A stretch of DNA of 12,406 nucleotides from Fimbriimonadia bacterium. Lineage in GTDB: Bacteria > Armatimonadota > Fimbriimonadia > Fimbriimonadales > Fimbriimonadaceae. The DNA lies in contig JALGYA010000076.1 of the NCBI GenBank assembly GCA_029824475.1, forward strand, positions 1 through 12,406. The letters are read 5' to 3'. The notes beneath the pieces were generated by a model. The model had not been told where the DNA came from and did no database searches. It saw only the letters and a program-made list of their open reading frames with translations. This document shows, piece by piece, positions 1 to 12,058 of this stretch. A program made the translations under genes and the position numbers. Each line of letters starts with the position of its first letter. Position 1 is the stretch's first letter.

Positions 1-1875
1 ATCAAGAACCCATGGCGCCTCGTCGATCGTGATGACCTGGCGTGTCGGATATCCGGCCGCCGTTTCCGTACGGATGCGTAGGTGGAACAGGTCGGAGACG
101 AGATCGAAGGCAAGCTGATCACAGCCAATAAGGGCGTGGCCAAGTTGGGCCACGCTACATTCACCACGCCCACGGCGGGCATCGAAACTCAAGGTGTGGG
201 TCGCATACCTCAGAAGAGCTACCCGGTAGACGACCCAGTCCTCGTCCTGCTTGAGGGAGAAACATGCCTTCCGAATCCTTCGCACAGTCTCAAGCATCAT
301 CCGGAACCTAAGATCCCAACGCACGAACGACAAGGTCTCGGGAATAGCTTCGACTGCCGCTGGCACCCGCTGGTTGACCAAGTACTCCTCAAAAGCACGC
401 AGGCGTGGAAAATCCTCCAGCCCAAGCGACTTCATCATGACGAACTTCGCATCATTCTCCATCTTCGCGAAGTCGAGCTCTATTGCGGCTCGTCCACAGT
501 GAGTCCAGTCAATGAACCAAACGTTATCCCCTTCGTCGCAGATGACATTGGCGAAGTTCAGGTCACCATGCGCTAGGCATGTATCGCCCTCCAGGCCGGC
601 CTGGTTCGCAGTCACAACCCGAAAAATCCTGAGCAATTGCTTCAGGTTGACCCCAATGTCTTCCACTTCCTCTTCCTCGAGGTAGCCAAGGATGACGCCC
701 GCATTCTCCTCCAGCCAATTTGCCTGCTGTTCGACATGCAAGCCGAAATCCCGGTAGGGAACGACGTGATCACGCTCGATCGTATTCGAATACAGACGCT
801 TCACGAGAAGGTCGAGCGTCTTATCGAGCCGGAGGAGGAAATGCTGCAGGTCGCCGTCATTGTGGATGTCCTCATATGTGTCCTGCTCGGTCTGCGGCGC
901 ACCTTCCATCGCGGCGAGTTCCATCCCTACGCCGATCCATTCACCCTTTGTCACTGGATAACCCAACGCCGGAACATGCTTACCGAGAAAATCCTTCACC
1001 TGGTAATAGCCGGCCAGCTCACGGCGCATCTGATCGAATGCATCGACCTTTAACACCATCGGCTCGGTCCGCGCGTTGTCCTTCCAACCCTCCGCCAGAA
1101 ATAATAGGCTCCCGCTGAAGCCGCCCGCTAGAGGTCGCAAGTGCGTGCGCGTCCAGTGCATGCAGAGGAGTTCGACAATCCGTTTTGGGTCGCTCCCTAA
1201 CTCTTCTTCGACCTCAGCCGGCTCGATCGCGCAGGCACCGGGAACCTGGCCAGGAAAATCCAGAGGAAGGCCAGCAAACGCTGCTGTCTCATCCATATCC
1301 AACAGCACCTGGACGCCGAGACCAGGAAGCGTGTGCCGCAGCACGGCAAGGTGAGCCTCCTTGGTGACACTCCCCACGAGATGCGCCGCTACAGCGACGT
1401 CATCGCATCGGAACACTCGCCGAAGGAACACAGAAAGCGCGAGGATACGCTCTTCCGTATGACAGCCGACGACAAGGAAGCGAAGCATCCCCCGCGCATC
1501 AGGATCGAGGGGGTCTACCCCTGTCAAATCCCGGACTGCAGCCTGCAACCCCTCTGCGGGAATACGCCCCGGTGAAGTGTCCAGGATACGGGCACCCTCA
1601 AGCCGCTGGTCAAAGGGAGGGGCAAGACCCTCACCCTCCTCTTGGACTTCATTGATCACGAGCAATCCAACAGACGACGTGGAAGTGCGCGCATGGTCCA
1701 GGAACCGTGGCAAAGGACCAGCACCGAACCCACGACCGCGACCGATGAGGCGCTCAATCTCACGTTCGCCAACACTGCCACGACCTCCAAGGAATCGGGC
1801 TTCGGGGCTTACTGTAGATGAGTCCAGCCCCGCCGCAACGACTACTGTGAATGGGCGCTCGCGAGAAATGGTCAA
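1..1875 (-). CDS. Phosphotransferase-family protein (APH / choline-kinase-like fold) with an unassigned N-terminal domain of about 230 aa. 3'-truncated: the C-terminus lies beyond the window start.
   Basis: I translated the minus strand by hand; this frame is open from 1908 down to position 1 with no stop. It is absent from the ORF track, probably because it has no stop in the window. Kinase-fold motifs: Gly-rich loop 'PLAGGFSGSLLFLAEG...MVLKV' at about 1040-1130, Brenner catalytic motif 'LAHGDLNFANVICDEG' at about 560-610, and 'WFIDWTHCG' (the DxD/IDW metal-binding motif). The G-loop to HGD spacing of about 183 aa is typical of APH/ChoK enzymes. Start: TTG at 1875..1873 overlaps the kef stop TGA (1874..1872) as TTGA, and the SD-like GAGGAG (plus 1884..1889) sits 8 nt upstream. 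The N-terminal 230 aa ('PFTVVVAAGLDSSTVSPEARFLGGRGSVGEREIERLIG...') could not be assigned to a family. Confidence 0.7.
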   Translation of the reverse strand, partial: MTISRERPFTVVVAAGLDSSTVSPEARFLGGRGSVGEREIERLIGRGRGFGAGPLPRFLDHARTSTSSVGLLVINEVQEEGEGLAPPFDQRLEGARILDTSPGRIPAEGLQAAVRDLTGVDPLDPDARGMLRFLVVGCHTEERILALSVFLRRVFRCDDVAVAAHLVGSVTKEAHLAVLRHTLPGLGVQVLLDMDETAAFAGLPLDFPGQVPGACAIEPAEVEEELGSDPKRIVELLCMHWTRTHLRPLAGGFSGSLLFLAEGWKDNARTEPMVLKVDAFDQMRRELAGYYQVKDFLGKHVPALGYPVTKGEWIGVGMELAAMEGAPQTEQDTYEDIHNDGDLQHFLLRLDKTLDLLVKRLYSNTIERDHVVPYRDFGLHVEQQANWLEENAGVILGYLEEEEVEDIGVNLKQLLRIFRVVTANQAGLEGDTCLAHGDLNFANVICDEGDNVWFIDWTHCGRAAIELDFAKMENDAKFVMMKSLGLEDFPRLRAFEEYLVNQRVPAAVEAIPETLSFVRWDLRFRMMLETVRRIRKACFSLKQDEDWVVYRVALLRYATHTLSFDARRGRGECSVAQLGHALIGCDQLAFDLVSDLFHLRIRTETAAGYPTRQVITIDEAPWVLD

Positions 1876-4133
1876 GTTGCTGTCTCCTCGCGGACCAGGC
1901 CGCGGTAATTATGGCCGACCGCCCCAAACAGAGCCCGAAGTCGGTCTACGTGAGAAGTCACTGAAAGAAGCTGCCGTTTAAGGTCTGTATCCAAGCCGGT
2001 TTCCCCGAGATAGCGCTCTCGAATCCGAGCGAGCCCGCTGTTATCGGCAGAGGTCATCGCGCGCAGCAATGCGAAGTCGGTCTCGTTCGGTTCCTCCGCA
2101 AGCTCCCGAAGGCTGTGCAGGATCGCATCCAGCGCCTCCACGACGACACCAGCGAGGGTGCGGGTCCTGTCATCCTGCTCAAGCTTTTTTAGCTCAAATC
2201 CCAGCCGCTCCAACTCTGAATTCATTGCCTCAAGACGCCGTTCATTATCTTGAAGAAGCCCAATCCGTTCATATTGCTCAGGCGAGAGGGAACCAGCCGT
2301 GGTGAGACGGTCGAGTGCATCACTGATAATCATCCCCAGCGCCTGGAATGAGCTGTGCAGGGCCTTGATCGACATCACGTCGTTGCCCTCCCGGTACCGC
2401 TCAAAAAGATCGGAGTGAATCTGAAGGAGCCGACCCTGCTCCAAGCGGATGAGGTCGATACTCCTTTCCGGATCGCCCGATGCCTCGATTTCATGGAGAT
2501 AGCGAAGCGCGCTCGTCTGCTCAGCAAGTCGACGCGACTGCGAGATCTGCTCGACGAGAGACTCAGCAACCTGGCTGTTCCCATCCAAAAGCAGTTGATT
2601 GTTCGCACCATCCATATCCTTGAGCTCTTCCTCACTCGAGACGCGCGCGATCACCTTGATCTTCGGATCAATCTGCTCGAGTGCGGCCGTCGTCCGGGCA
2701 ACGGTACTGCTGTCGTCTAAAGCGAGCACAACACCCATTGCCTTGCGAACGGCGAGCCGCTCAAGAAGGATTCGGTCAGACGGATCTCCAAAGACGGCTG
2801 CTTGGGCATCCCCCCGCGCCGCGACAAAATCCGCAGTGCTGGCAGCAACTACCACATGGCGGATGCCGGCCGCTTCCAGGCGCTTCGCGACGGCGCGGCC
2901 AAAAGCACCATAGCCGCAAAGCACCACGTGGTCGCCCAATCGCTCGTCCACTTCATCCGCTTTGGAACCGACGGCACCGCGGGTCACCGCCCGGATGATC
3001 GTGTCGGATCTCTGGATTAGGAAAGGTGTCGCAATCATCGAGACGACGACCGCGGCGACCAACAACTGGGAGACTTCATCGTCGAGCATTCCGTGCCCGA
3101 TCAACAACGAAAGCACGACCAGCGAGAATTCGCCTACCTGAGCAAGACTCAGTGCAGTCTTGAGTGAAACTTCTTTGCCGACCGACCGCGTGAGCAGAAG
3201 AAAGATGCAGGCAGCCTTGAACAGCATCATGCCTGCGGCGAGCAGTAGGATCCAATGGCCGCTGTCCGCGATGAAACCGTGTTCAATCCGAAAGCCCACC
3301 GTCACGAAGAAGACACCCAGGAGAAGATCCCGGAAAGGAATCAGGTCTGCTTCTACCTGATGCCTGTGAATGCTGTCGGCAATGAGATGACCTGCGAGAA
3401 ACGCACCCAGGGAATAAGGAAAGCCGAAGGCGTGAGTCAGCCATGATGCACCGATCACGACCACAAATATGGCCCCCATGAAAATCTCCTTCGAGTTCGC
3501 GCCTGCGACAGCCTCGAAGAACAGGCGAAGCAGTCGCCGGCCGACGAGCAGCAACATAGCCAGCACAATCACAGCATTGCGCCCCGTCTCCAAAAGGAGC
3601 TCCCCCATCCCCCCTTCCTGGCTGGTGAACACAGTCACCATGAGCAGGATGGGGATCACCGCGATGTCCTGAAAGACCAGGATTCCGACTGCTGAGCGCC
3701 CGTACTCAGACTTCATCTGTCCGGCCTCGTTCAGTAGCTTAAGGACGATGGCCGTTGACGAGAGAGCGAGGCCACCACCGAGTACCGAAGCCGCACGACC
3801 GTCGATCCCGAAGACACCCCAAGCAATCAATGCCATCAGCACGCCGGTTACGACCACCTGAGCGCCACCGAAACGCAGGACCTCACGACGCATCTCCTTC
3901 AGATGGGCGACGGAAAATTCCAACCCGATGGTAAACATCAGGAAGACAACGCCGAACTCCGCAATGTGCTCCAGCTCCTCGCTGTGCAACGCCTTCTCAC
4001 CGACCACCGGCCCCAGAGCCGCGCCGGTGAGGATGTAGCCAATAACCGTTGGAATCCCAACACGCTTCAGGAGCACATTCAGGATCGTCGCAATGGCGAT
4101 CGCGAGGATCAATAGCGGAAGCAACTCGTGCAT
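1872..4133 (-). CDS. Kef-type monovalent cation:proton antiporter (CPA2 family, K+ efflux) with a cytoplasmic RCK_N/TrkA-N regulatory domain. The RCK_N domain is followed by an atypical coiled-coil-rich C-terminal extension of about 230 aa.
   Basis: 753-aa ORF with an ATG start. The N-terminal 380 aa are polytopic membrane sequence typical of Kef/NapA ('MHELLPLLILAIAIATILNVLLKRVGIPTVIGYILTGAALGP', 'GLEFS', multiple TM helices). It has a Rossmann GxGxxG motif, 'VVLCGYGAFGRAVAKRLEAAGIRHVVV', and an RCK_N ending '...KIKVIARVSSEEELKDMDGANNQLLL'. The last 230 aa are charged and helical ('LRYLHEIEASGDPERSIDLIRLEQGRLLQIHSDLFERYREG...') and do not look like RCK_C. Confidence 0.85.
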   Translation of the reverse strand: MHELLPLLILAIAIATILNVLLKRVGIPTVIGYILTGAALGPVVGEKALHSEELEHIAEFGVVFLMFTIGLEFSVAHLKEMRREVLRFGGAQVVVTGVLMALIAWGVFGIDGRAASVLGGGLALSSTAIVLKLLNEAGQMKSEYGRSAVGILVFQDIAVIPILLMVTVFTSQEGGMGELLLETGRNAVIVLAMLLLVGRRLLRLFFEAVAGANSKEIFMGAIFVVVIGASWLTHAFGFPYSLGAFLAGHLIADSIHRHQVEADLIPFRDLLLGVFFVTVGFRIEHGFIADSGHWILLLAAGMMLFKAACIFLLLTRSVGKEVSLKTALSLAQVGEFSLVVLSLLIGHGMLDDEVSQLLVAAVVVSMIATPFLIQRSDTIIRAVTRGAVGSKADEVDERLGDHVVLCGYGAFGRAVAKRLEAAGIRHVVVAASTADFVAARGDAQAAVFGDPSDRILLERLAVRKAMGVVLALDDSSTVARTTAALEQIDPKIKVIARVSSEEELKDMDGANNQLLLDGNSQVAESLVEQISQSRRLAEQTSALRYLHEIEASGDPERSIDLIRLEQGRLLQIHSDLFERYREGNDVMSIKALHSSFQALGMIISDALDRLTTAGSLSPEQYERIGLLQDNERRLEAMNSELERLGFELKKLEQDDRTRTLAGVVVEALDAILHSLRELAEEPNETDFALLRAMTSADNSGLARIRERYLGETGLDTDLKRQLLSVTSHVDRLRALFGAVGHNYRGLVREETAT

Positions 4134-4161: not shown

Positions 4162-4494
4162 TCAAAAGCCCTTCATTGCTTCGTCCTCGTTGTCATAGAC
4201 ACCGAGAATCGAGCTGAATCCACTCATATCGAAGACCTCGCGCACGGTCTCGTTCAGGCTGCAGACCCGGAGCTCGCCATTGGATGCACCAAGTTGCTTG
4301 GCGGTCCACAGCAGGATACGCAGTCCGGCACTACTGATGTAGTCCAAAGCGCGAAAGTCGGCGAGCATTCGCCCAGCGCCATCGGAGATGAGCGCAGCGA
4401 TCTTCTCCTCTGCTTCTGGAGCGGTATTCGTATCGAGGTTTCCCTCGAAGCGGACCACGCAGACGTCGTCAATTCTTTCGATGGTGAGTTGCAT
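4162..4494 (-). CDS. STAS-domain anti-sigma-factor antagonist (RsbV/SpoIIAA-like anti-anti-sigma).
   Basis: 110-aa single STAS domain with an ATG start. It has a conserved phosphorylatable-serine motif, 'DFRALDYISSAGLRILL' (compare SpoIIAA/RsbV 'DLSFMDSSGLGVIL'). It lies 5 nt downstream of the HATPase_c kinase gene and 28 nt upstream of kef. Confidence 0.9.
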   Translation of the reverse strand: MQLTIERIDDVCVVRFEGNLDTNTAPEAEEKIAALISDGAGRMLADFRALDYISSAGLRILLWTAKQLGASNGELRVCSLNETVREVFDMSGFSSILGVYDNEDEAMKGF

Positions 4495-4499
4495 TGGTT

Positions 4500-6191
4500 C
4501 TATTCAGATTCGATGGGGCCTTCGCCCTGGTTCAGGAACTTCACGACCGTCACGATGTTACGGTCAATTTTTCTGGTGTAGTGGGTCTCGTCCATCATTG
4601 ATTCGACGAGGTGGATGCCGAGGCCACCAATCTTTCGCTCGGCGATCGGCAGTGATGTATCCGGCGAGACGTGTGCGAACGGGTTGAAAGGAACTCCTTC
4701 GTCCTCAACCGTGAGGACCAGACGGGTTGGGGTTAGGTCAAAACGAACCCCAATGGAATGCTCTGCGTCGTCGGGACCATCGACGAATGCGTACGAAATC
4801 ACATTGTTCAGCAACTCGTCAAACGCCATCGCGGTCGTCCTCCGGACCTTATCCTCGACACCGTTATCCGCTGCGAACTCCTGGAACCGCTCCAGGACCA
4901 CTGCGATCTCCTCGAGCCGGCTTGCAATCCGAAACTCAAGCACTCCCATGGTTGCAGGGTCCGATGCGCCCGCGAATGAGAGCGCCATCACAGTGATGTC
5001 ATCCGCCTGCTCAGCCTTGCCCTGGAACTCCCAGACGCGCGACACGACATCATCGACCATCCCCTTGACCGCGGCCGGCCCGCCCTTCAGGCAATCCACC
5101 AGCGGTTCCTCCCCATACAGATGACCCTTCTCATTCATCGCTTCGGTGATGCCGTCGGTGTAGACCAACAGCCGGTCACCTCGAGTCATCTCCTGCTCGC
5201 TCTCACCATAGGTCATGCCGGGCACCGCAGCAACGATCGGTCCATGAAGCTCAGCGAGCCGGCGTGGGGGATCCTCTTCGTGGAGCAGGAATGGCGGGTT
5301 GTGGCCTGCATTGGTGAACCGCAACTTTCCAGTGTTCAAGTCAAGGATCCCCAGCCATACAGTCACGAACATGCACGAATCATTGCTGTGCCCGAGTTCA
5401 TCGTTGACATGAGTCAGGATGCTCGCCGGAGACACATCATTCGTCGCCCGCGACTTAATCAGGGTCTTGGTCATCGCCATGAACAGGGCGGCTGGAACAC
5501 CCTTGCCCGAGACGTCACCCACGCAGATGCAAAGACGCTCTTCCCCAATCAGGAAGAAGTCGTAGAAGTCGCCTCCGACCTCGCGTGCTGGATGCAGTGC
5601 TGCGTGGATGAGGAACTCAGTTCGATGGGAGTAGGCATCAAAGTCCTCCGGCAGCATGCTCATCTGGATATCGCGGCCGATGGTGAGCTCGCCCTCCATG
5701 CGCTCCTTTGCCGTCGTCGTCCGCTGGAGGTCCTCAATCGACTTTCGAAGCTCAGCGTTACTAGCCGTCAGGTCTGACATGAGCTCATCCCGGGACCTCT
5801 GCAGCAGCACGGCTCGCACCTCTGCAACGGTCCGCTCATCCGATGCACAGGCACCGTGAATCCCAAAATATGCAGTTGCGATCGCCTCGCCCGGCGCATG
5901 GGAGCCTTGAAACTCAATGAACTCGGCGAGCGCCTCAGGCACCGATTCCAACTTGAACGCTGGGAACGTGAGAACGATCACCCACTTGGCTCCGCGGTTT
6001 TCCAGTGCCAACTCAATTTGGCCGCTGTCGCATGACGAACGAAGACCTCGAGCGAGTACTGAAACAGCCGTACCGAATCGCGCTGCTGCAACTCGGTCGC
6101 CGCAAATGAGTTCACAGGCCATTCGAGCCTTGCTTCGTGAAGCGACAACGGAGTCAATCCCGAGGAAGGACAATGCGCCGAGAGGAATCAT
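4500..6191 (-). CDS. Fusion protein: N-terminal domain of unknown type (about 140 aa), coiled-coil, PP2C/SpoIIE-type serine phosphatase (RsbU/RsbP-like), then a C-terminal RsbW/SpoIIAB-like HATPase_c anti-sigma-type serine kinase.
   Basis: The ORF track gives 4500..6200, which starts at a GTG. The preferred start is the ATG at 6191..6189: it forms an ATGA overlap with the upstream gene's TGA stop, and the SD-like GAGGTG sits 6 nt upstream. PP2C motifs match B. subtilis RsbU: 'GELTIGRDIQMSMLP', 'REVGGDFYDFF', 'ICVGDVSGKGVPAALFMAMTKTLI', 'LLVYTDGITEA', 'ADDITVMAL'. The C-terminal HATPase_c resembles RsbW: 'AFDELLNNVISYAF', 'LVLTVEDEGVPFNP', 'GGLGIHLVESMMDE'. Confidence 0.88.
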   Translation of the reverse strand: MIPLGALSFLGIDSVVASRSKARMACELICGDRVAAARFGTAVSVLARGLRSSCDSGQIELALENRGAKWVIVLTFPAFKLESVPEALAEFIEFQGSHAPGEAIATAYFGIHGACASDERTVAEVRAVLLQRSRDELMSDLTASNAELRKSIEDLQRTTTAKERMEGELTIGRDIQMSMLPEDFDAYSHRTEFLIHAALHPAREVGGDFYDFFLIGEERLCICVGDVSGKGVPAALFMAMTKTLIKSRATNDVSPASILTHVNDELGHSNDSCMFVTVWLGILDLNTGKLRFTNAGHNPPFLLHEEDPPRRLAELHGPIVAAVPGMTYGESEQEMTRGDRLLVYTDGITEAMNEKGHLYGEEPLVDCLKGGPAAVKGMVDDVVSRVWEFQGKAEQADDITVMALSFAGASDPATMGVLEFRIASRLEEIAVVLERFQEFAADNGVEDKVRRTTAMAFDELLNNVISYAFVDGPDDAEHSIGVRFDLTPTRLVLTVEDEGVPFNPFAHVSPDTSLPIAERKIGGLGIHLVESMMDETHYTRKIDRNIVTVVKFLNQGEGPIESE

Positions 6192-7264
6192 CGCACGCAC
6201 CTCAACACGATGCAGCTGGCGTCATCATGAGACTTGCCATACTTCTCCACAATCGCCCGCGCGAAGTCCTGGGGCTTCTGGAACCGAGTATCAGAAGCGG
6301 GAATTCTGGCGAGCCGGTCGCTTACCCCATCAGAATGCATCACGACAAGGTCCGTCGGCCCCATGACCATTGACTGGATGGTCGGCGTGCGCATGCGCCC
6401 GCCAAGAACCCCCTCGGCATAGTGAAACGAAATGGCTCGCCCGCCAAGGTGCCGAAGCGACACATTGCCGACCCCTGCGAACTCCAGCGTGCGCTCCTCC
6501 GCGCGAAAATACACCACCGCAGCGGCAGCCCCCAGACTCCCTTTAAGGCCGTGACCAAGCCGTTCAACTGCTCGCACAGGATCGACATCAAATTCCTCTG
6601 CCAGCAAACGACGAGCTCGCATGGCAACTTCGTACGCACCCATTCCATGCCCGAGCCCATCGATCAAGGCAGCTCGCTGAACTTGCTCGGAATGATCGAA
6701 GAAGACCTGATCTCCACTGAATCTTTCACCTAGGCTGGGGCGAATGAAAAACCCGCATTGAATTCCGAACTGATCTTCCGCTCCTCGCGCAACTCCTCCA
6801 AAGCCTCTGCCATCGACGGCCCCCAAGGACTTACCACCCTCCAGTGAGATGGAGCCTGAATCGCGCGTGATGCCCCTGCGACAGTGAATAGCAATCCGTA
6901 CCAGTGTTCCAGTTCCTACCTCGGATTCCAGCTCAAACTCATCCACCATCCGCTTTATCCCTGGAAGGCCAAGCCCAAGTGTTCCACTGGAACTGAAATG
7001 ATCCTCGAGCGCCTTCTCGATATCAGGTATCCCAGGACCCTGATCCCGCGCGATTGCCTGACAACCTGGGGCATTCGTATTCAGAACTTGGAATTCGATC
7101 TCCCCAGACTCCGCGTACTTCAAGATATTACGGCCAAGTTCCGAGACCGAAGTCGCGAACTTGTTGACTTCCGGCAATGCAAGTCCCGCCCTCTTCGCGA
7201 TCTGGGTCGCCATAAGCACGGCTCGCGTGAGTGAGCCTTCGGAGTCGACACGCGCCTTATCCAT
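6188..7264 (-). CDS. rsbT: Fusion protein: RsbT-like HATPase_c serine kinase (stressosome kinase) at the N-terminus and an RsbX-like PP2C feedback phosphatase at the C-terminus.
   Basis: The ORF track gives 6188..7279, which starts at a GTG. The ATG at 7264..7262 is better supported: the SD GGAGG sits 3 nt upstream, and it overlaps the rsbS stop by 8 nt. The N-terminal half closely matches B. subtilis RsbT: '[19 protein letters not shown]' versus 'ISELARNIFLYAGKGQIGI', and '[55 protein letters not shown]' versus '[56 protein letters not shown]'. The C-terminal half has RsbX-like PP2C motifs: 'SGDQVFFD', '[14 protein letters not shown]', 'FAGVGNVSL', 'LVVMHSDGV', '[10 protein letters not shown]'. 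Confidence 0.88.
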   Translation of the reverse strand: [358 protein letters not shown]

Positions 7265-7727
7265 CTTCCTCCAAGCCACCCTCTCCGCCTTCCTCTGGAC
7301 CCAGCTCGTCGAGCTCGGCCTCAGTCAGATCAGCGGTGCTATCGCCCCGATTGCCATCCTTGTGCGCCTGCATGGCTCGAAAAGCGTCATCCAGGTCGAG
7401 CACCGCATCGATCGATCGCACGTCTGCTGCCAAGTCAATCAATGAGGAAACGACTCCGGGACGCAGACCTGCTACCAGACATCGAGCACCAAGGAGCTTG
7501 GCCATGTCGAGCGTCTTCCGTAATGCATCGAAGTCCGTCAAGTCCAGGATTTCGACACCTGCCACGTCAAGGATCACTCCACGGGCACCTGTCCGGTGAA
7601 GTAGCGCGAGCAGGTCCTCTCGAAGGTCAGCAACGCGTTTTTCATCCAGGTCTCCCTGGATTGAGGCCACGATGCAACCTTGGGTGAGCTGCAGCGGTAC
7701 GGCTCCGGCTCTCGATTCCAAGCTCAA
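7257..7727 (-). CDS. rsbS: RsbS-like single-STAS-domain stressosome scaffold protein.
   Basis: 156 aa. 'VPLQLTQGCIVASIQGDLDEKRVADLREDLLALLHRTGARGVILDVAGVEILD...' is collinear with B. subtilis RsbS '[53 protein letters not shown]...'. The start is TTG at 7727..7725, which forms a TTGA overlap with the rsbR stop. The C-terminal tail is acidic, 'ELDELGPEEGGEGGLEEDG'. Confidence 0.85.
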   Translation of the reverse strand: MSLESRAGAVPLQLTQGCIVASIQGDLDEKRVADLREDLLALLHRTGARGVILDVAGVEILDLTDFDALRKTLDMAKLLGARCLVAGLRPGVVSSLIDLAADVRSIDAVLDLDDAFRAMQAHKDGNRGDSTADLTEAELDELGPEEGGEGGLEEDG

Positions 7728-8629
7728 CGCTTCACGCGCTTCGTGCTGATTTCCATTCCCGAGCGTTGGAAAGCGTCAGAGAGTGCATCCTTCATCGTGG
7801 CCGTCGTCTTGATGCTGCCGACGTCAATGCCCAGGTCGACGATGGTCTGCGCGATCGCAGGCGAAAGGCCCGAGATGGTGCACTCACAACCCATCAGCCG
7901 GGTTGCACTGGTGATTTTAATGAGGTTGTTTGCGACTGCAGTATCCACTACACCGACACCACTGATGTCGAGGATGAAGATCTGCGCCTGCGTCTCGGCG
8001 ATCTTGGCGAGAGTCGCATTCATGATGTCTCCCGCACGGTGCGAGTCGATGATGCCGACAATGGGAAGCAGCAGGATCCCTTCCCAAATCTGCGTCACGG
8101 GCGTCGACATCTCCATCAGCGCCTTCGACTGGGAAGTGAGCATGTCCTCAACAACCGCGTTGTACGAGTCAACAATGATCGCGGCATCCAGGTGCGCTAC
8201 TTTCGTAATCGCGCCCTGAACCGCGACGACCTCCTCTTGAGGCAACTCCTGAGTAAGAAGCTGACAGATAATCTCCAGGAAGGTGTTCACGCCGGACCAG
8301 TACGAACTGAGCTGCAGGCCGATCCGCGCGTGAGTCTGCCCGACGCGAAACCTAGTCGCGACATAGGCCTCGTCAATCTCGGCCGTGAAGAGTTGACGCC
8401 AGAACTCTACCTGTCGCGCCTGGGCACTCTCCAGAAGATCTGCGTCAGAGAAGAATTGAGTGAACTCGGGCCGGGTCTCCATCCAATCGTAGAAACGAGT
8501 GAGGAGCTCCGGGAGGCGCGCCTCCAACTTGGGAGCAGCACTGCGGACCAGATCAAGATCTGAGTCAGACACCAGGAACTGGGTCTTCAATTCCTCGGGG
8601 TTATTCGAACTGTGGTTGTACTGGGTCAT
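7724..8629 (-). CDS. rsbR: RsbR-like stressosome sensor: N-terminal globin-coupled-sensor-type (non-haem or haem globin) domain plus a C-terminal STAS domain.
   Basis: 301 aa with an ATG start. The C-terminus closely matches the B. subtilis RsbR STAS domain, including both phospho-threonines: 'FILDISGVGVVDTAVANNLIKITSATRLMGCECTISGLSPAIAQTIVDLGIDVGSIKTTATMKDAL' versus 'ILDITGVPVVDTMVAHHIIQASEAVRLVGCQAMLVGIRPEIAQTIVNLGIELDQIITTNTMKKGM'. The N-terminal 170 aa have sensor-globin features: 'FYDWMETRPEFTQFF...VEFWRQLFTAEIDEAYVATRFRVGQTHARIGL'. Confidence 0.88.
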   Translation of the reverse strand: MTQYNHSSNNPEELKTQFLVSDSDLDLVRSAAPKLEARLPELLTRFYDWMETRPEFTQFFSDADLLESAQARQVEFWRQLFTAEIDEAYVATRFRVGQTHARIGLQLSSYWSGVNTFLEIICQLLTQELPQEEVVAVQGAITKVAHLDAAIIVDSYNAVVEDMLTSQSKALMEMSTPVTQIWEGILLLPIVGIIDSHRAGDIMNATLAKIAETQAQIFILDISGVGVVDTAVANNLIKITSATRLMGCECTISGLSPAIAQTIVDLGIDVGSIKTTATMKDALSDAFQRSGMEISTKRVKR

Positions 8630-8637
8630 GACTAGCC

Positions 8638-10458
8638 CTATTTGCTCAGTTGAAGGACGACCTCAATGCCGTCCTGAAGTGTACGCTCCGTGCGGATACC
8701 CTCGAGTGCTAGATCGAGGTCCACAATCGTGCGCGCGGCGTCCGCTTGAACGCCGGTAATGACGACCTCCGCACCGAGGAGCCGCGCGGACCTCGCGGCG
8801 CGCGCCAACCCGGTCGCGACAGTTTCATCGAGGCGGGGCAATCCGGTGAGGTCAAGAATCGCCGCGCGCGCGCCACGCTTATGGAGACCCTCCACAAGCA
8901 TTTCACGGACATGCTCGATTCGCCGTTCGTCCATCTCACCCACAAGCGGCATGACGACGACGTCTTCTTGCAGGGAGATCAAAGGTGTTGAAAGCGCATC
9001 GATCGCCTCATTCTGCTTGGCAACCATCTGTTCAAGTGAGGCACGCATCGTCTCCAAACTCGCTCCCAATGCACCGAGTTCATCCCTGCGCGTGACCTCG
9101 ACTGGTTTATCCAGGTCGCCCTTAGCAAGTGAGGCAGCTACACCTGAAAGCCGCTCAATGGGACGTGTCAGGGAGCGAGCGAAGAACACTGCTCCGGCCA
9201 CAATCAGCGCCATGATTCCAATTTGCTCCAGGATGATCTGATTCCGCAACTCCTTCGCTGGTCCGAGTGCTTCAGCCTCATCGATCTCAGCCAACAGCGC
9301 CCAATCAATGCCAGGCAGGTCGAGTGGTCGATAACTCGAGAGCACTGGAACACCTCGGTAGTCCTCGAAGACTCCACGACCCGTATCTCCAGCCTGTACA
9401 GCCCTGACACCGGCAGTATCGACCACCTGCAGGCCGATCGCGCTCCCTTGAGCCTCAATTGAAGCAATCACTGAGGAGTCCTGACCGTGGCGCCGCAGGG
9501 TGCTGAGGTAGGACTCGCCATCCTCGACAAGGAACCTCGACTCGTTCCGCAGTGTACGGTCGGCGCCCACGATGTAGCACTCACCTGAGGCGCCAAGCCC
9601 GACATCCTCCCAACGGCCGCCGGTCGTCATGATGTCATCAATCCGATCGATCGGCACTTGAAAGGCAAGTACGCCTACCTGCTCGTCCCCATCGAAGATT
9701 GGCGACGCAATGAACGAGGCGCTCGCACCGTACGAAGGGAGATACGGCGAATAGTCCACCAGCTCCACACTCCCGGAAGTCGTTGCTGATGCCACCGCCT
9801 CGAAGCATGTCGCGAGGTTGGACTCACGATGGGGTCCTGATTTCAGCGACGTGCCAAAGTCCATCTCCTTAGAGGCACTGTAGACGACATTACCCGTCCT
9901 GGAATCGATCAGGAATACGTCGTAGTAACCGAACCGCTCAAGGAAGGAGCGAAACAATGGATGGTAGCGCGCATGAGCATCCGCATAACTGCTGCCATCT
10001 CCAGGATCGTCGAGCAGTGCGCGGGAACCCAATGAAAACGGACTCCGCGCGAGGAAAAGGCGCTGGAGTTCCTGTCCCATTCGATTCTGCGGAATGAGGT
10101 CTGCAAGCGGGGGAGTGCCAGGCAAGGCCTCAAGCCGCGGCAGCACCTCCGACTCATAATGCAGGCGCAATTCAAGATCGTCGTCTCCAGATGGCTCGAC
10201 CCTGGCGAATGCCTCGGAGAATTCGCGCATCGCGCCGATCACCATCAGACTTTCCGAGAGAGTCAGGACTTGCCCCTCGACTGCCTGAAAGTAGGTGTGA
10301 ATTTGCTCCGCCTTTGTTTCCCTGACAACCGTCAACTTCTGAAACGCACCATCCAGCAAGGACTTTCTCGCCTGCCTATACGCCGTGTGCGCAGTCAGTC
10401 CCGACGCCGCGACCCCCACGAGCACGAGCAAAATCAGGGTTCGGATGCGGATGGACAT
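8638..10458 (-). CDS. Membrane-anchored STAS-domain sensor: signal-anchor/TM1, periplasmic double-Cache (dCache_1-like) domain, TM2, HAMP domain, cytoplasmic STAS domain. RsbR-paralogue-like stressosome input protein.
   Basis: 606 aa with an ATG start. TM1 is 'IRTLILLVLVGVAASGL'. The 330-aa extracytoplasmic region has dCache hallmarks: 'YYDVFLIDSRTGNVVYSASKE', 'VGVLAFQVPIDRIDDIM', 'GASGECYIVGADRTLRNESRF'. TM2 is 'IGIMALIVAGAVFFA'. The HAMP-like segment is 'RSLTRPIERLSGVAASLAKGDLDKPVEVTRRDELGALGASLETMRASLEQM'. The C-terminal STAS is 'VVMPLVGEMDERRIEHVREMLVEGLHKRGARAAILDLTGLPRLDETVATGLARAARSARLLGAEVVITGVQADAARTIVDL'. Confidence 0.85.
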   Translation of the reverse strand: MSIRIRTLILLVLVGVAASGLTAHTAYRQARKSLLDGAFQKLTVVRETKAEQIHTYFQAVEGQVLTLSESLMVIGAMREFSEAFARVEPSGDDDLELRLHYESEVLPRLEALPGTPPLADLIPQNRMGQELQRLFLARSPFSLGSRALLDDPGDGSSYADAHARYHPLFRSFLERFGYYDVFLIDSRTGNVVYSASKEMDFGTSLKSGPHRESNLATCFEAVASATTSGSVELVDYSPYLPSYGASASFIASPIFDGDEQVGVLAFQVPIDRIDDIMTTGGRWEDVGLGASGECYIVGADRTLRNESRFLVEDGESYLSTLRRHGQDSSVIASIEAQGSAIGLQVVDTAGVRAVQAGDTGRGVFEDYRGVPVLSSYRPLDLPGIDWALLAEIDEAEALGPAKELRNQIILEQIGIMALIVAGAVFFARSLTRPIERLSGVAASLAKGDLDKPVEVTRRDELGALGASLETMRASLEQMVAKQNEAIDALSTPLISLQEDVVVMPLVGEMDERRIEHVREMLVEGLHKRGARAAILDLTGLPRLDETVATGLARAARSARLLGAEVVITGVQADAARTIVDLDLALEGIRTERTLQDGIEVVLQLSK

Positions 10459-10548: not shown

Positions 10549-11754
10549 TCATTTCAGCTCCGGCGGGAGCGAGGAATCTCCTTGCTGAACCTTGTTGGCA
10601 AGTTTAGCGATGTCGATGCCTGTCGCGTTTTTCAACTGCTCCAGCATGGCCACTGCTGATCCAGCTACGTTCCGCACATGCCCTGGCAAGGCTCCCCCTT
10701 CTCCCCCATCGACAATCGTCAGCTTATCAATCCTGAGGTTATCAGCAACCGTGCGAGTGACTTGCTCCATCAAGGTGGGTAGGAGCTGGATTAGGAATAG
10801 ATCCTTTGCGTCCTCACCTACCCATTGACCGCGAAGCAGCTCAAGCGCCTCGGCAGTGGCACGCCCTTCTTCGCGGATACGCGCCGAGCTACCCTCGGCG
10901 CTTAGCAATCCGGCATCACGAGCAGCTTCGGCTGGAACAACGACGTCTGCCTGAGTCCGTTTGCGAGCAAGCTCAATCCGGCGCTCCTCAAGCGCGACTT
11001 CCTCTTCTGCACGAGCGATCGCACCAGCGACTGATGCACGCTCTTCCGCCCGGCTCTCCTCACCGGCAAGTTCAGCACGACGGACCTTGAGAGCGTTCTC
11101 TTCTCCGATCACGGACTGCTCAGATGAGATCTCCGCAATCCGAGCAAATTTGTCCTGCTCTGCAGCGACGCTCCGCGCTTCGGCGTCAGCAGTAGCCTCT
11201 GCTACTCGCGCATCTCGCTGCACAGCGGAATTACGCTGGCGGCCGATTGCCGTGAGATAACCAGCCTCGTCCGAGATATCTTGCACCTGAAAATAATCAA
11301 GCACGATGCCAAGGTCTCGCAAAAGCGCCCGCGAACGTTCGGTGACCTGTTGAGCCAGGTCGAGTCGCTCAGAGTTGGCATTCTCAGGTGACATCGTCGC
11401 CAACACGCCACGCAGGACGCCGCTGACCGCCTGCTTGGCTGCCTTGATCACCGCATCTTCCCCCTTGCCAAGAAAACGCTCAATGGCTGCATCCAATCCG
11501 TCCTCCTCGCGGCCAGCGAGCTTAACGCTGGCACGCGCATCGACATTGACCGGGATCATCCCCGCGCACATGGCCTTTCCCACCTGCAGATCGAGCCCTA
11601 TTGAGGTCAACGGAAGTCGCGCCACAGACTCAACGAGTGGCATTTTGAAGCCACGCCCACCTCGGATCACACGATAGCCTCTTGTATCGCCACCCCCCGT
11701 TTGCTTCCGGCGCGCCAAGTAGACGTTTGAGAATAGCCGCGTAGGAATACCCAA
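10549..11754 (-). CDS. Flotillin / SPFH (band-7) family protein, FloT/YqiK-like: the SPFH-domain body plus an EA-rich coiled coil. Its N-terminal membrane segment lies in a different frame (see 11630..12058).
   Basis: 'GYRVIRGGRGFKMPLVESV' matches FloT 'RIKIVRGGGTFVLPVFQ'. The coiled coil is long and Glu/Ala-rich ('AEATADAEARSVAAEQDKFARIAE...EERRIELARKR'), and the C-terminus has the flotillin motif 'LFLIQLLPTLMEQVTRTVADNLRIDKLTIVDGG'. The nominal start at 11754 is a TTG picked by the ORF tool; the true N-terminus is upstream in another frame. Confidence 0.85.
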   Translation of the reverse strand: MGIPTRLFSNVYLARRKQTGGGDTRGYRVIRGGRGFKMPLVESVARLPLTSIGLDLQVGKAMCAGMIPVNVDARASVKLAGREEDGLDAAIERFLGKGEDAVIKAAKQAVSGVLRGVLATMSPENANSERLDLAQQVTERSRALLRDLGIVLDYFQVQDISDEAGYLTAIGRQRNSAVQRDARVAEATADAEARSVAAEQDKFARIAEISSEQSVIGEENALKVRRAELAGEESRAEERASVAGAIARAEEEVALEERRIELARKRTQADVVVPAEAARDAGLLSAEGSSARIREEGRATAEALELLRGQWVGEDAKDLFLIQLLPTLMEQVTRTVADNLRIDKLTIVDGGEGGALPGHVRNVAGSAVAMLEQLKNATGIDIAKLANKVQQGDSSLPPELK

Positions 11755-12058
11755 AATAGCTGCCCATTGCTATCAGGACGTAGGGCCAGAAACGAATCGC
11801 AAGGACAATGATGCCTCCTCGCCCCCCACGCCTCCCGGAAGCCTTCCCGAGTTCGGCTGAATCAACAGCAGCAAACGGATCTTCCCAGCCCGATAGCAGG
11901 AAGATGCCAGCAGCCAAACAGTAAAGTGATGCGACTAGGCCGCCAACGGCAGCTGCCTTTGCTGCAGCATCCCAGCCGCGCTTGTCCACAGCTACAAGGG
12001 CATGAATGGTCACGAATGAGCCGACGAAGGCGATGAAAATGAAAGAGGCCTGGAACAT
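11630..12058 (-). CDS. N-terminal membrane portion of the same flotillin gene, in the -1 frame relative to the body, with 2-3 hydrophobic helices. The frameshift is probably at the C6 tract at 11693..11698, so this is either a pseudogene or a homopolymer sequencing error.
   Basis: ATG at 12058..12056. It has hydrophobic segments 'ASFIFIAFVGSFVTIHALVAV', 'AAAVGGLVASLYCLAAGIFLL' and 'GGIIVLAIRFWPYVLIAMGSYFGYSYAAIL'. The end of this frame, '...AAILKRLLGAPEANGG', joins collinearly to the body frame, 'GDTRGYRVIRGG...', if one G is removed from the G6 run on the coding strand. Compare FloT 'KYRTAGPDEALIVTGSYLGN...RIKIVRGGG'. Confidence 0.6.
   Translation of the reverse strand: MFQASFIFIAFVGSFVTIHALVAVDKRGWDAAAKAAAVGGLVASLYCLAAGIFLLSGWEDPFAAVDSAELGKASGRRGGRGGIIVLAIRFWPYVLIAMGSYFGYSYAAILKRLLGAPEANGGWRYKRLSCDPRWAWLQNATR
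11693..11698. repeat. C6/G6 homopolymer inside the flotillin gene, at the point where the reading frame changes.
   Basis: Plus strand 11691..11700 is 'caccccccgt'. Frame A (the N-terminal membrane part) and frame B (the SPFH body) both read through this run. Confidence 0.6.

Follow-up and report, generated by a model that had tools for sequence, protein, structure and literature searches.

Fusion of an RsbT-type kinase to an RsbX-type phosphatase in a stressosome operon of a Fimbriimonadia bacterium

Contig JALGYA010000076.1 of a Fimbriimonadia bacterium (assembly GCA_029824475.1), all 12,406 nucleotides of which were analyzed and are here called the window, carries a stressosome operon in which a kinase of the RsbT type and a phosphatase of the RsbX type are encoded as one polypeptide. 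We term this protein T::X. The gene and its component parts are

6188..7264, minus strand: RsbT::RsbX fusion gene, taken from the list of open reading frames (ORFs), with Pfam matches to HATPase_c_2 and SpoIIE
6875..7264, minus strand: RsbT-like GHKL Ser/Thr kinase domain, residues 1-130, assigned by alignment with Bacillus subtilis RsbT, motifs and fold
6755..6874, minus strand: inter-domain linker, approximately residues 131-170, rich in Gly, Ser and Arg, variable and modeled with low confidence
6191..6754, minus strand: RsbX-type compact PP2C domain, approximately residues 171-358, assigned by sequence and fold matches in the PDB and by motifs

The ORF is single and uninterrupted, with no frameshift, and encodes 358 amino acids from an ATG at 7264 to a stop codon at 6188-6190. 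An alternative GTG start at 7279 would give a protein of 363 residues, and the public gene calls contain the identical 358-residue protein (P0001) beginning at the ATG at 7264. In the 363-residue GTG form the Pfam model HATPase_c_2 matches residues 16-129 with 41.8 bits against a gathering cut-off of 27.4, and the SpoIIE/PP2C model PF07228 matches residues 202-360 with 35.7 bits against a cut-off of 25. No RsbT or RsbX model of NCBIfam was reached, the only matches there being sub-threshold ones to SpoIIAB and RsbA, and profile searches of Pfam and NCBIfam gave no match to a REC domain. Comprising kinase, a linker of approximately 40 residues and PP2C domain within its 358 residues, T::X is plainly not a stand-alone, single-domain protein like RsbT (approximately 133 residues) or RsbX. 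By sequence, motifs, fold and genetic context it has the characters of RsbT and of RsbX alike. An initial annotation, made from the sequence alone, had placed an RsbT kinase and an RsbX-type phosphatase in one polypeptide at this position, and the single ORF with Pfam matches to both halves bears this out. A model of the protein was built with AlphaFold2 on 30 homologues; it has a predicted local distance difference test score (pLDDT) of 86.6 and a predicted template modeling score (pTM) of 0.60, a value to be expected of two loosely tethered domains.

The N-terminal half is closely related to RsbT. The B. subtilis reference sequence (P0264, identified as RSBT_BACSU by exact look-up) aligns with it over 127 of 133 residues with 45% identity and two one-residue gaps (E = 1e-31), and the aligned region takes in the sequences SELxRNIxxYA and GLPGxKRxxDEF. 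Identity rises to 53% with a stand-alone RsbT of 138 residues (P0240). The motifs of a GHKL kinase are all found, that is the N box (E42 and N46), the G1 box (D74-G76-G78) and the G2 box (G97-G99-G102), and among the 30 fused homologues, which are 32-50% identical, the columns of E42, N46, D74, G76, G78, G97 and G99 are invariant. The half was initially described as a near-canonical RsbT, a view that the full-length alignment and the kinase motifs sustain. Comparison with Foldseek shows that the T domain of the model resembles SpoIIAB, with a template modeling (TM) score of approximately 0.75; a sequence search of the PDB with T::X detected no RsbT chain. In neighbor-joining trees the T domain groups with the stand-alone RsbT of loci where T and X are encoded separately, and its gene lies directly downstream of rsbR and rsbS, the position expected of rsbT. 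An anti-sigma factor of the RsbW type was considered as the identity of the N-terminal half and rejected, given that context and trees group it with RsbT.

The C-terminal half is a PP2C domain of the RsbX type. Its best sequence matches in the PDB are RsbX of Moorella (MtX, 3zt9; E = 2e-11) and RsbX of B. subtilis (3w40; E = 1.5e-7). The same two structures are the top fold matches of the model in Foldseek, 3zt9 with a target TM score of 0.90 and a root-mean-square deviation of 1.9 Å over 192 columns, and 3w40 with a TM score of 0.79. Since they rank first and second by fold, and the domain is compact and of approximately the length of RsbX, we assign it to the short RsbX type rather than to that of RsbU, SpoIIE or PstP. 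The similarity to RsbX is thus upheld by profile, sequence and fold searches. Every one of the RsbX-like motifs listed in the initial annotation (GDxxF, DGxGHG, VGNV, HSDG and xDDxS) is present, as GDQVF (D185), DGLGHG (D202), VGNV (N267), HSDG (D312) and HDDAS (D347, D348). The metal-ligand motifs comprise G184-D185, D202-G203 with G205-H206-G207, D312-G313 and D347-D348. In SpoIIE the metal ligands are Asp610, Asp628/Gly629, Asp746 and Asp795 (PMC3517971), to which those of the X half were matched by the order of the motifs rather than by direct alignment. G184-D185, D202, G205-H206-G207, G266-N267, D312-G313 and D347-D348 are invariant columns in the 30 fused homologues, and over 244 fused proteins of 300-470 residues the kinase and PP2C motif residues are each at least 99% conserved. 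The catalytic motifs of both T and X are under strong purifying selection across a family whose members are 30-50% identical. The initial annotation had proposed the metal-binding aspartates as the means of judging whether the phosphatase half is intact. D185, D202, D312 and D347/D348 all occur in T::X, with conservation of at least 99%, and the domain is not degenerate. A degenerate pseudo-phosphatase was accordingly rejected as a candidate, all the PP2C metal-ligand motifs being present and conserved.

The two domains are connected by a segment that is predicted to be disordered, as the pLDDT falls below 50 for residues 131-151. The linker is the most variable region in the alignment of the 30 homologues, and its length ranges from 0 to 65 residues over the fused family with a median of 35. 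The motif RG[WFH]GG within it is common only to the window protein and its closest homologues.

The gene for T::X lies within a run of co-oriented genes on the minus strand, in the order flotillin, dCache_1-HAMP-STAS, protoglobin-STAS, STAS, T::X, SpoIIE-HATPase_c_2, STAS and CPA2/TrkA_N transporter. From the dCache gene through to the transporter the intergenic spacing is -13 to +28 nucleotides, and in the order dCache-STAS, globin-STAS, STAS, T::X the overlaps are of 4-8 nucleotides. T::X is the sole rsbT and the sole rsbX of this translationally coupled operon, which also encodes two RsbR-type proteins and RsbS. The other genes and features of the window, in the direction of transcription, are

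11630..12058, minus strand: small membrane protein, no match in the Pfam scan
10549..11754, minus strand: flotillin/Band_7 gene (Pfam)
8638..10458, minus strand: membrane RsbR paralogue, dCache_1-HAMP-STAS, 606 residues (Pfam)
7724..8629, minus strand: globin-coupled RsbR (protoglobin and STAS), 301 residues (Pfam), the presumed sensor and main substrate
7257..7727, minus strand: RsbS-like single STAS protein, 156 residues, the presumed scaffold and substrate, overlapping the start of T::X by 8 nucleotides
4500..6191, minus strand: effector, 563 residues (Pfam SpoIIE, 1.9e-48, and HATPase_c_2, 1.3e-21)
5793..6191, minus strand: N-terminal domain of the effector, residues 1-133, degenerate RsbT-like, no Pfam match
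4162..4494, minus strand: RsbV-like anti-sigma-factor antagonist STAS protein, 110 residues (TIGR00377, 88 bits against a cut-off of 53; Pfam STAS)
1872..4133, minus strand: CPA2/TrkA_N transporter (Pfam)

The likely substrates of T::X are found immediately upstream. RsbR is strongly similar to that of Vibrio vulnificus (7o0i_B, E = 1.9e-87), and its Ser196 and Thr230 align with Ser199 and Thr233 of VvRsbR, so that both canonical phospho-acceptor positions are kept. Ser199 and Thr233 of VvRsbR correspond to the phospho-threonines Thr171 and Thr205 of B. subtilis RsbR (PMC9237108). The STAS domain of the membrane paralogue is 30% identical to that of RsbR in an ungapped alignment, with Glu511 and Glu545 at the two acceptor positions, where they may mimic phosphate. 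A dCache-HAMP-STAS gene is also found in L001, L004, L006, L012, L034, L038, L048 and L081, all loci of the census described below. RsbS matches the RsbS structures of Listeria, B. subtilis and V. vulnificus in the PDB (E = 2e-18 to 4e-17, the latter for VvRsbS) and aligns without gaps to the RsbS of B. subtilis, Listeria and Vibrio; the V. vulnificus protein has glycine at the column of B. subtilis Ser59. The RsbV-like STAS protein has the usual Ser-Ser at positions 54/55.

At the ends of the operon there are genes whose connection with the stressosome is less direct. In each locus of the window's operon type that was checked, the gene following the RsbV-like STAS encodes a transporter or channel. 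It is a CPA2/TrkA_N protein in the window and in L081, a Na/Pi cotransporter in L003 (5864-7528) and L082 (11111-12700), Amt in L004 (5526-6863) and a cyclic nucleotide monophosphate (cNMP)-gated channel in L006 (7457-9115). The CPA2 protein of the window has a helical C-terminal extension of approximately 210 residues (538-746) that matches nothing in Pfam and has a homologue (E = 8.6e-28) at the C-terminus of the Na/Pi cotransporter of L003. The partner switch may act by way of this extension, as a regulatory module common to both transporters. At the other end the genes for flotillin and the small membrane protein lie directly upstream of the stressosome genes, across a gap of 90 nucleotides. 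A flotillin gene adjoins the module in L081 and lies a few kb away in L004, and both of these loci have amt and glnA nearby.

The effector is encoded by the gene that follows T::X, its ATG overlapping the T::X stop codon as ATGA. It consists of an N-terminal domain (residues 1-133), a helical linker, a PP2C domain (approximately residues 217-406) and an RsbW-like kinase domain (approximately residues 423-551), and its top fold match is 3ke6, the RsbU and RsbW domains of Rv1364c. The initial annotation had termed this gene an RsbU-like PP2C::kinase fusion. The succession of PP2C and kinase is as described, but the protein is RsbU-like in its PP2C domain only; no match to RsbU_N was found in it even at E <= 10, and the N-terminus is instead RsbT-like. 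Published work did not find RsbU_N in most Gram-negative stressosome outputs. The N-terminal domain is predicted to be of alpha/beta structure with an order of secondary structure elements that mirrors that of the T domain, and comparison with the T-domain profile using hhalign gives a probability of 90-94% (E = 1e-6 to 1e-7). A helix motif is common to the two, ATRxATxVSELxR in the effector and vaTaVSELarN in the T family, and the N-box Asn and both G boxes are missing from the effector. Searching the PDB with a profile of the domain (hmmsearch) gave matches at chance level only. A hidden Markov model (HMM) of the domain also matches genuine RsbT proteins and, in 57 of the 75 loci that extend at least 450 nucleotides past X, the N-terminus of the gene that immediately follows X. 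Those 57 output genes encode a PP2C-kinase, a PP2C or a hybrid histidine kinase of approximately 900 residues. Taken at the level of sequence, these comparisons indicate that the first 133 residues of the effector are an RsbT-derived pseudokinase.

How widespread is the fusion of rsbT and rsbX? A second T::X of 358 residues, at least 90% identical, is found within the same operon on a separately recorded 56-kb contig of a Planctomycetota metagenome-assembled genome (MAG), whose sample may be that of the window or a related one. A word-indexed search found the same two-domain architecture in more than 120 full-length homologues. An exhaustive search of 1.84 billion cluster representatives (at 50% identity) gave 117 matches at E <= 1e-30, nearly all of 320-390 residues and containing both halves, and the fusion is present in at least 117 such clusters. 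T proteins (54-55% identical) and X proteins (37-39% identical) that stand alone are found in the same list. Fused proteins carry the NCBI name 'ATP-binding SpoIIE family protein phosphatase'. The initial annotation had suggested a survey of the architecture, which confirms that the fusion is real and occurs in many phyla; it is less exceptional than was implied, belonging to a large family already named in the databases. Full-text literature searches found no description of an RsbT-RsbX fusion, though it may be mentioned in Pane-Farre 2005 or in a 2017 stressosome review.

For a census of loci, one genome per GTDB species was scanned with peptide patterns of the T domain; the hits were ranked against the fused query and the best 80 loci kept. 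Sorted by our own ORF calls and phmmer, and with L038 counted as fused, these comprise 39 fused, 38 split and 3 incomplete loci, and the 39:38 division is not an unbiased frequency because the loci were chosen by T-domain patterns and ranked against a fused query. Before L038 was moved to the fused loci the four classes were

Class A, 28 loci and the window: R-S-[T::X], with no other T gene
Class B, 10 loci (L043, L050, L055, L057, L062, L065, L069, L074, L076 and L080): R-S-T-[T'::X]-[HATPase_c_2-HisKA-HATPase_c]
Split class, 39 loci: ordinary R-S-T-X
Incomplete class, 3 loci: not classifiable

Class A includes Aeromonas salmonicida, A. sobria, A. dhakensis, Synechococcus, Singulisphaera, Rhodoferax, Caulobacteraceae, Gemmatimonadota and Polyangiales, while Pyrinomonadaceae, Actinomadura, Leptospiraceae and Methylococcales are among the taxa of class B. 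Planctomycetota are also among the taxa with fused loci. The kinase motifs are kept in all the T-like domains, including T' of class B. The window type of operon with a fused T::X recurs in L001, L003, L004, L006, L012 and L082, the last of these being a complete genome. In Aeromonas and other taxa the fused T::X is associated with different outputs. At the locus of A. salmonicida ATCC 33658 (L008, 4258-10749) a PAS-PAS-STAS RsbR, RsbS and a fused T::X are accompanied by a hybrid histidine kinase (HisKA-HATPase-REC-Hpt) and a REC-HD-GYP protein. In L038 (3179-4272) the T reading frame runs into the start of X (LQVAHVNRP) and is then broken by a frameshift; the gene is a fused one whose frame was disrupted either in assembly or because it is a pseudogene.

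The neighbor-joining trees were calculated from short domains, have no support values and were used only to show how fused and split forms interleave. Most of the class A proteins form one clade, and those of the window, L001, L003, L004, L006 and L012 are scattered among split systems. In the split loci the stop codon of rsbT either overlaps the start of rsbX or directly adjoins it, and only 10-15 residues of X precede strand beta1. Where the stop codon overlaps the start codon a small change can fuse the two genes, and given the short N-terminus of split X the fused forms must carry extra linker. The fusion arose from an ancestral adjacent pair of rsbT and rsbX, and probably did so more than once.

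What might such a protein do? According to the Bacillus model, activation of RsbU requires RsbT to leave the complex, and RsbX is a separate enzyme that resets the system slowly. We consider it likely that T::X is a bifunctional stressosome enzyme, in which an RsbT-type kinase and an RsbX-type phosphatase connected by a flexible linker act as writer and eraser of RsbR/RsbS phosphorylation. The T domain would dock onto the STAS core of RsbR and RsbS and phosphorylate it, and the tethered X domain would remove the same phosphates. Such action is best supported for RsbR and would perhaps extend to RsbS. The fusion would fix the ratio of kinase to phosphatase at 1:1 and keep the eraser wherever the writer is, so that phosphorylation of the core would track not enzyme levels but sensor input, meaning the O2 or haem state of the globin and the periplasmic ligand of the dCache paralogue. 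Such a system would be self-resetting, and its output would pass to the adjacent partner switch of PP2C-kinase and RsbV-like protein. The initial suggestion of a switch with a built-in reset is plausible as an inference.

Several observations weigh against this interpretation. The foremost is that a kinase and a phosphatase tethered together and acting without regulation on one substrate would run a futile cycle of ATP hydrolysis. No regulatory element is visible in the protein, and that nothing can be seen to prevent such a cycle is the main weakness of the model. With a pTM of 0.60 there is no reliable placement of the two domains of T::X relative to each other. The indication of repeated fusion comes from trees that were calculated from short domains and have no support values. 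RsbS has Leu63 at the column of B. subtilis Ser59, followed by Thr64, so that the canonical phospho-serine is missing; phosphorylation of RsbS, which is central to the Bacillus model, is consequently uncertain here. The phospho-serine is likewise lost from V. brasiliensis RsbS, and phosphorylation of RsbS is equally uncertain in Vibrio (PMC4976288). Lastly, the effector has no RsbU_N to receive a released RsbT. The initial annotation had raised the question of what RsbT would do once released; with RsbU_N lacking and a degenerate RsbT-like domain in its place, the step from released RsbT to RsbU_N cannot be assumed in this system.

That last point leads to a different account of the output, which we think possible but rather unlikely. 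T::X might be a resident writer and eraser that remains on the stressosome, or cycles locally there, and does no more than set the phosphorylation state of the STAS core, while the effector itself is captured and released through its RsbT-like pseudokinase domain. Either this domain would rival RsbT for its binding surface on RsbR/RsbS, or it would form a pair with the T domain. The absence of both a Pfam match and RsbU_N from it, the T-like order of its elements and the hhalign probability are as expected, and so is the finding that its HMM matches genuine RsbT and the gene following X in those 57 of 75 loci whatever the type of output. In class B, moreover, the X protein and the downstream histidine kinase both carry HATPase_c_2 N-terminal domains beside a separate RsbT, and in V. 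vulnificus an interaction between RsbT and the downstream protein was not detected (PMC9237108). Yet the homology with T spans just 60-74 columns or so at 16-18% identity, and the domain has been judged T-like by profile comparison and by the predicted order of its secondary structure elements. Pseudokinase-bearing effectors also accompany split T and X, so this feature does not explain the fusion itself, and the helical linker between the N-terminal domain and the PP2C fits equally well with an RsbU-like model in which a partner binds the N-terminal domain (PMC12143880). It is a tentative proposal, to which we give a low probability, that the Bacillus release model may not apply in this widespread class of loci and that their outputs (PP2C-kinases, PP2Cs and hybrid histidine kinases) are controlled by RsbT mimicry, the stressosome capturing or releasing each of them directly through an N-terminal, RsbT-derived pseudokinase domain. 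If true, it would explain how RsbT could be joined to RsbX without loss of signaling.

Other explanations for the fusion have still less to commend them. The X half might reset some phosphoprotein other than RsbR and RsbS, for example the RsbV-like STAS protein or a T domain that has phosphorylated itself. Autophosphorylation is reported for RsbT of V. brasiliensis (PMC4976288), and an RsbV-like STAS with the usual serine is encoded two genes downstream of T::X. We nevertheless regard this as improbable, because in sequence as in fold the X half most resembles the two RsbX proteins known from stressosome modules and lies within the conserved R-S-T-X gene order, and because the effector already provides a PP2C next to its own kinase for RsbV. 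It could also be asked if rsbT and rsbX were joined in this contig by artefact, through a frameshift from sequencing or assembly or through the loss of a stop codon. In the T tree the nearest loci at species level (L034 and L048) are indeed split, and MAG contigs do carry frameshifts, as seen in L038, where one has broken a fused gene. But the separate 56-kb contig has a 358-residue protein of at least 90% identity, fusion is seen in more than 240 homologues of 30-50% identity, including those of complete genomes (L082) and Aeromonas type strains, and the linker motif of the window protein is common to its closest fused homologues. With a protein of the same length on a second contig and so many fused homologues, a frameshift artefact was rejected as exceedingly improbable.

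The preferred reading of T::X as a bifunctional writer and eraser bears on how stressosomes signal, a matter that is still debated. A T and X that are always together at fixed 1:1 stoichiometry, across many phyla, constitute a natural experiment on the need for release of free RsbT, and likewise on the balance of kinase and phosphatase. The fusion is found in culturable bacteria such as Aeromonas salmonicida, providing tractable hosts, and the RsbT-like domain of the effector may be a missing link between Gram-negative stressosomes and their outputs. As the fusion is common and already named in the databases, our finding exposes a gap in characterization rather than a new kind of system.

Each half of T::X, and the joining of a GHKL kinase to a PP2C domain, can be compared with systems already known. 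Rv1364c of Mycobacterium tuberculosis (3ke6) and other PP2C-RsbW fusions also join a PP2C domain covalently to a GHKL kinase of the partner-switching type. In Rv1364c, however, the phosphatase precedes the kinase, the opposite order to T::X, and the domains are of the RsbU/RsbW type and lie outside an rsbR-rsbS module. SypE of Vibrio fischeri is closer in layout and offers a characterized precedent, with an N-terminal GHKL serine kinase and a C-terminal PP2C domain that have opposing activities on a single STAS protein (PMC3610818). The window protein has the same arrangement in one chain, but where SypE has a central REC domain that switches its activities there are approximately 40 disordered residues and no match to REC. 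Moreover, the substrate of SypE is the single-domain SypA, which functions in biofilm control and not in a stressosome (PMC3610818).

The remaining comparisons are with stressosome proteins proper. Compared with B. subtilis, the T half is 45% identical to RsbT and the X half has the same compact fold and metal-ligand motifs as RsbX. There the two are separate proteins encoded five genes apart, whereas in the window they form one chain. B. subtilis RsbT leaves the stressosome to bind the four-helix bundle of RsbU_N, which the window lacks, and RsbS Ser59 is not kept. The best match of the X half in both sequence and fold is MtX of Moorella thermoacetica (3zt9), the RsbX of an R-S-T-X module; this is a stand-alone protein of 192 residues, to which the window protein adds an N-terminal kinase and a linker. 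Taken as a whole, the operon compares best with rsbR-S-T-X of Vibrio vulnificus and V. brasiliensis (PMC9237108, PMC4976288). The gene order is the same, RsbR is a haem-globin protein in both with the same two phospho-acceptor positions, and both have an RsbS without the Bacillus Ser59, an X-type phosphatase directly after T, no sigB and a variable downstream output. In the window, unlike the Vibrio module, there is an additional membrane-bound dCache-HAMP-STAS paralogue of RsbR, and the output is a partner switch of PP2C-kinase and RsbV-like protein rather than a two-component or cyclic di-GMP module. While X of Vibrio is a separate single-domain PP2C (PMC9237108), T and X of the window are one polypeptide. 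The window thus has the complete Vibrio-type set in order, a haem-globin and STAS RsbR, RsbS, T and X, but with the last two fused.

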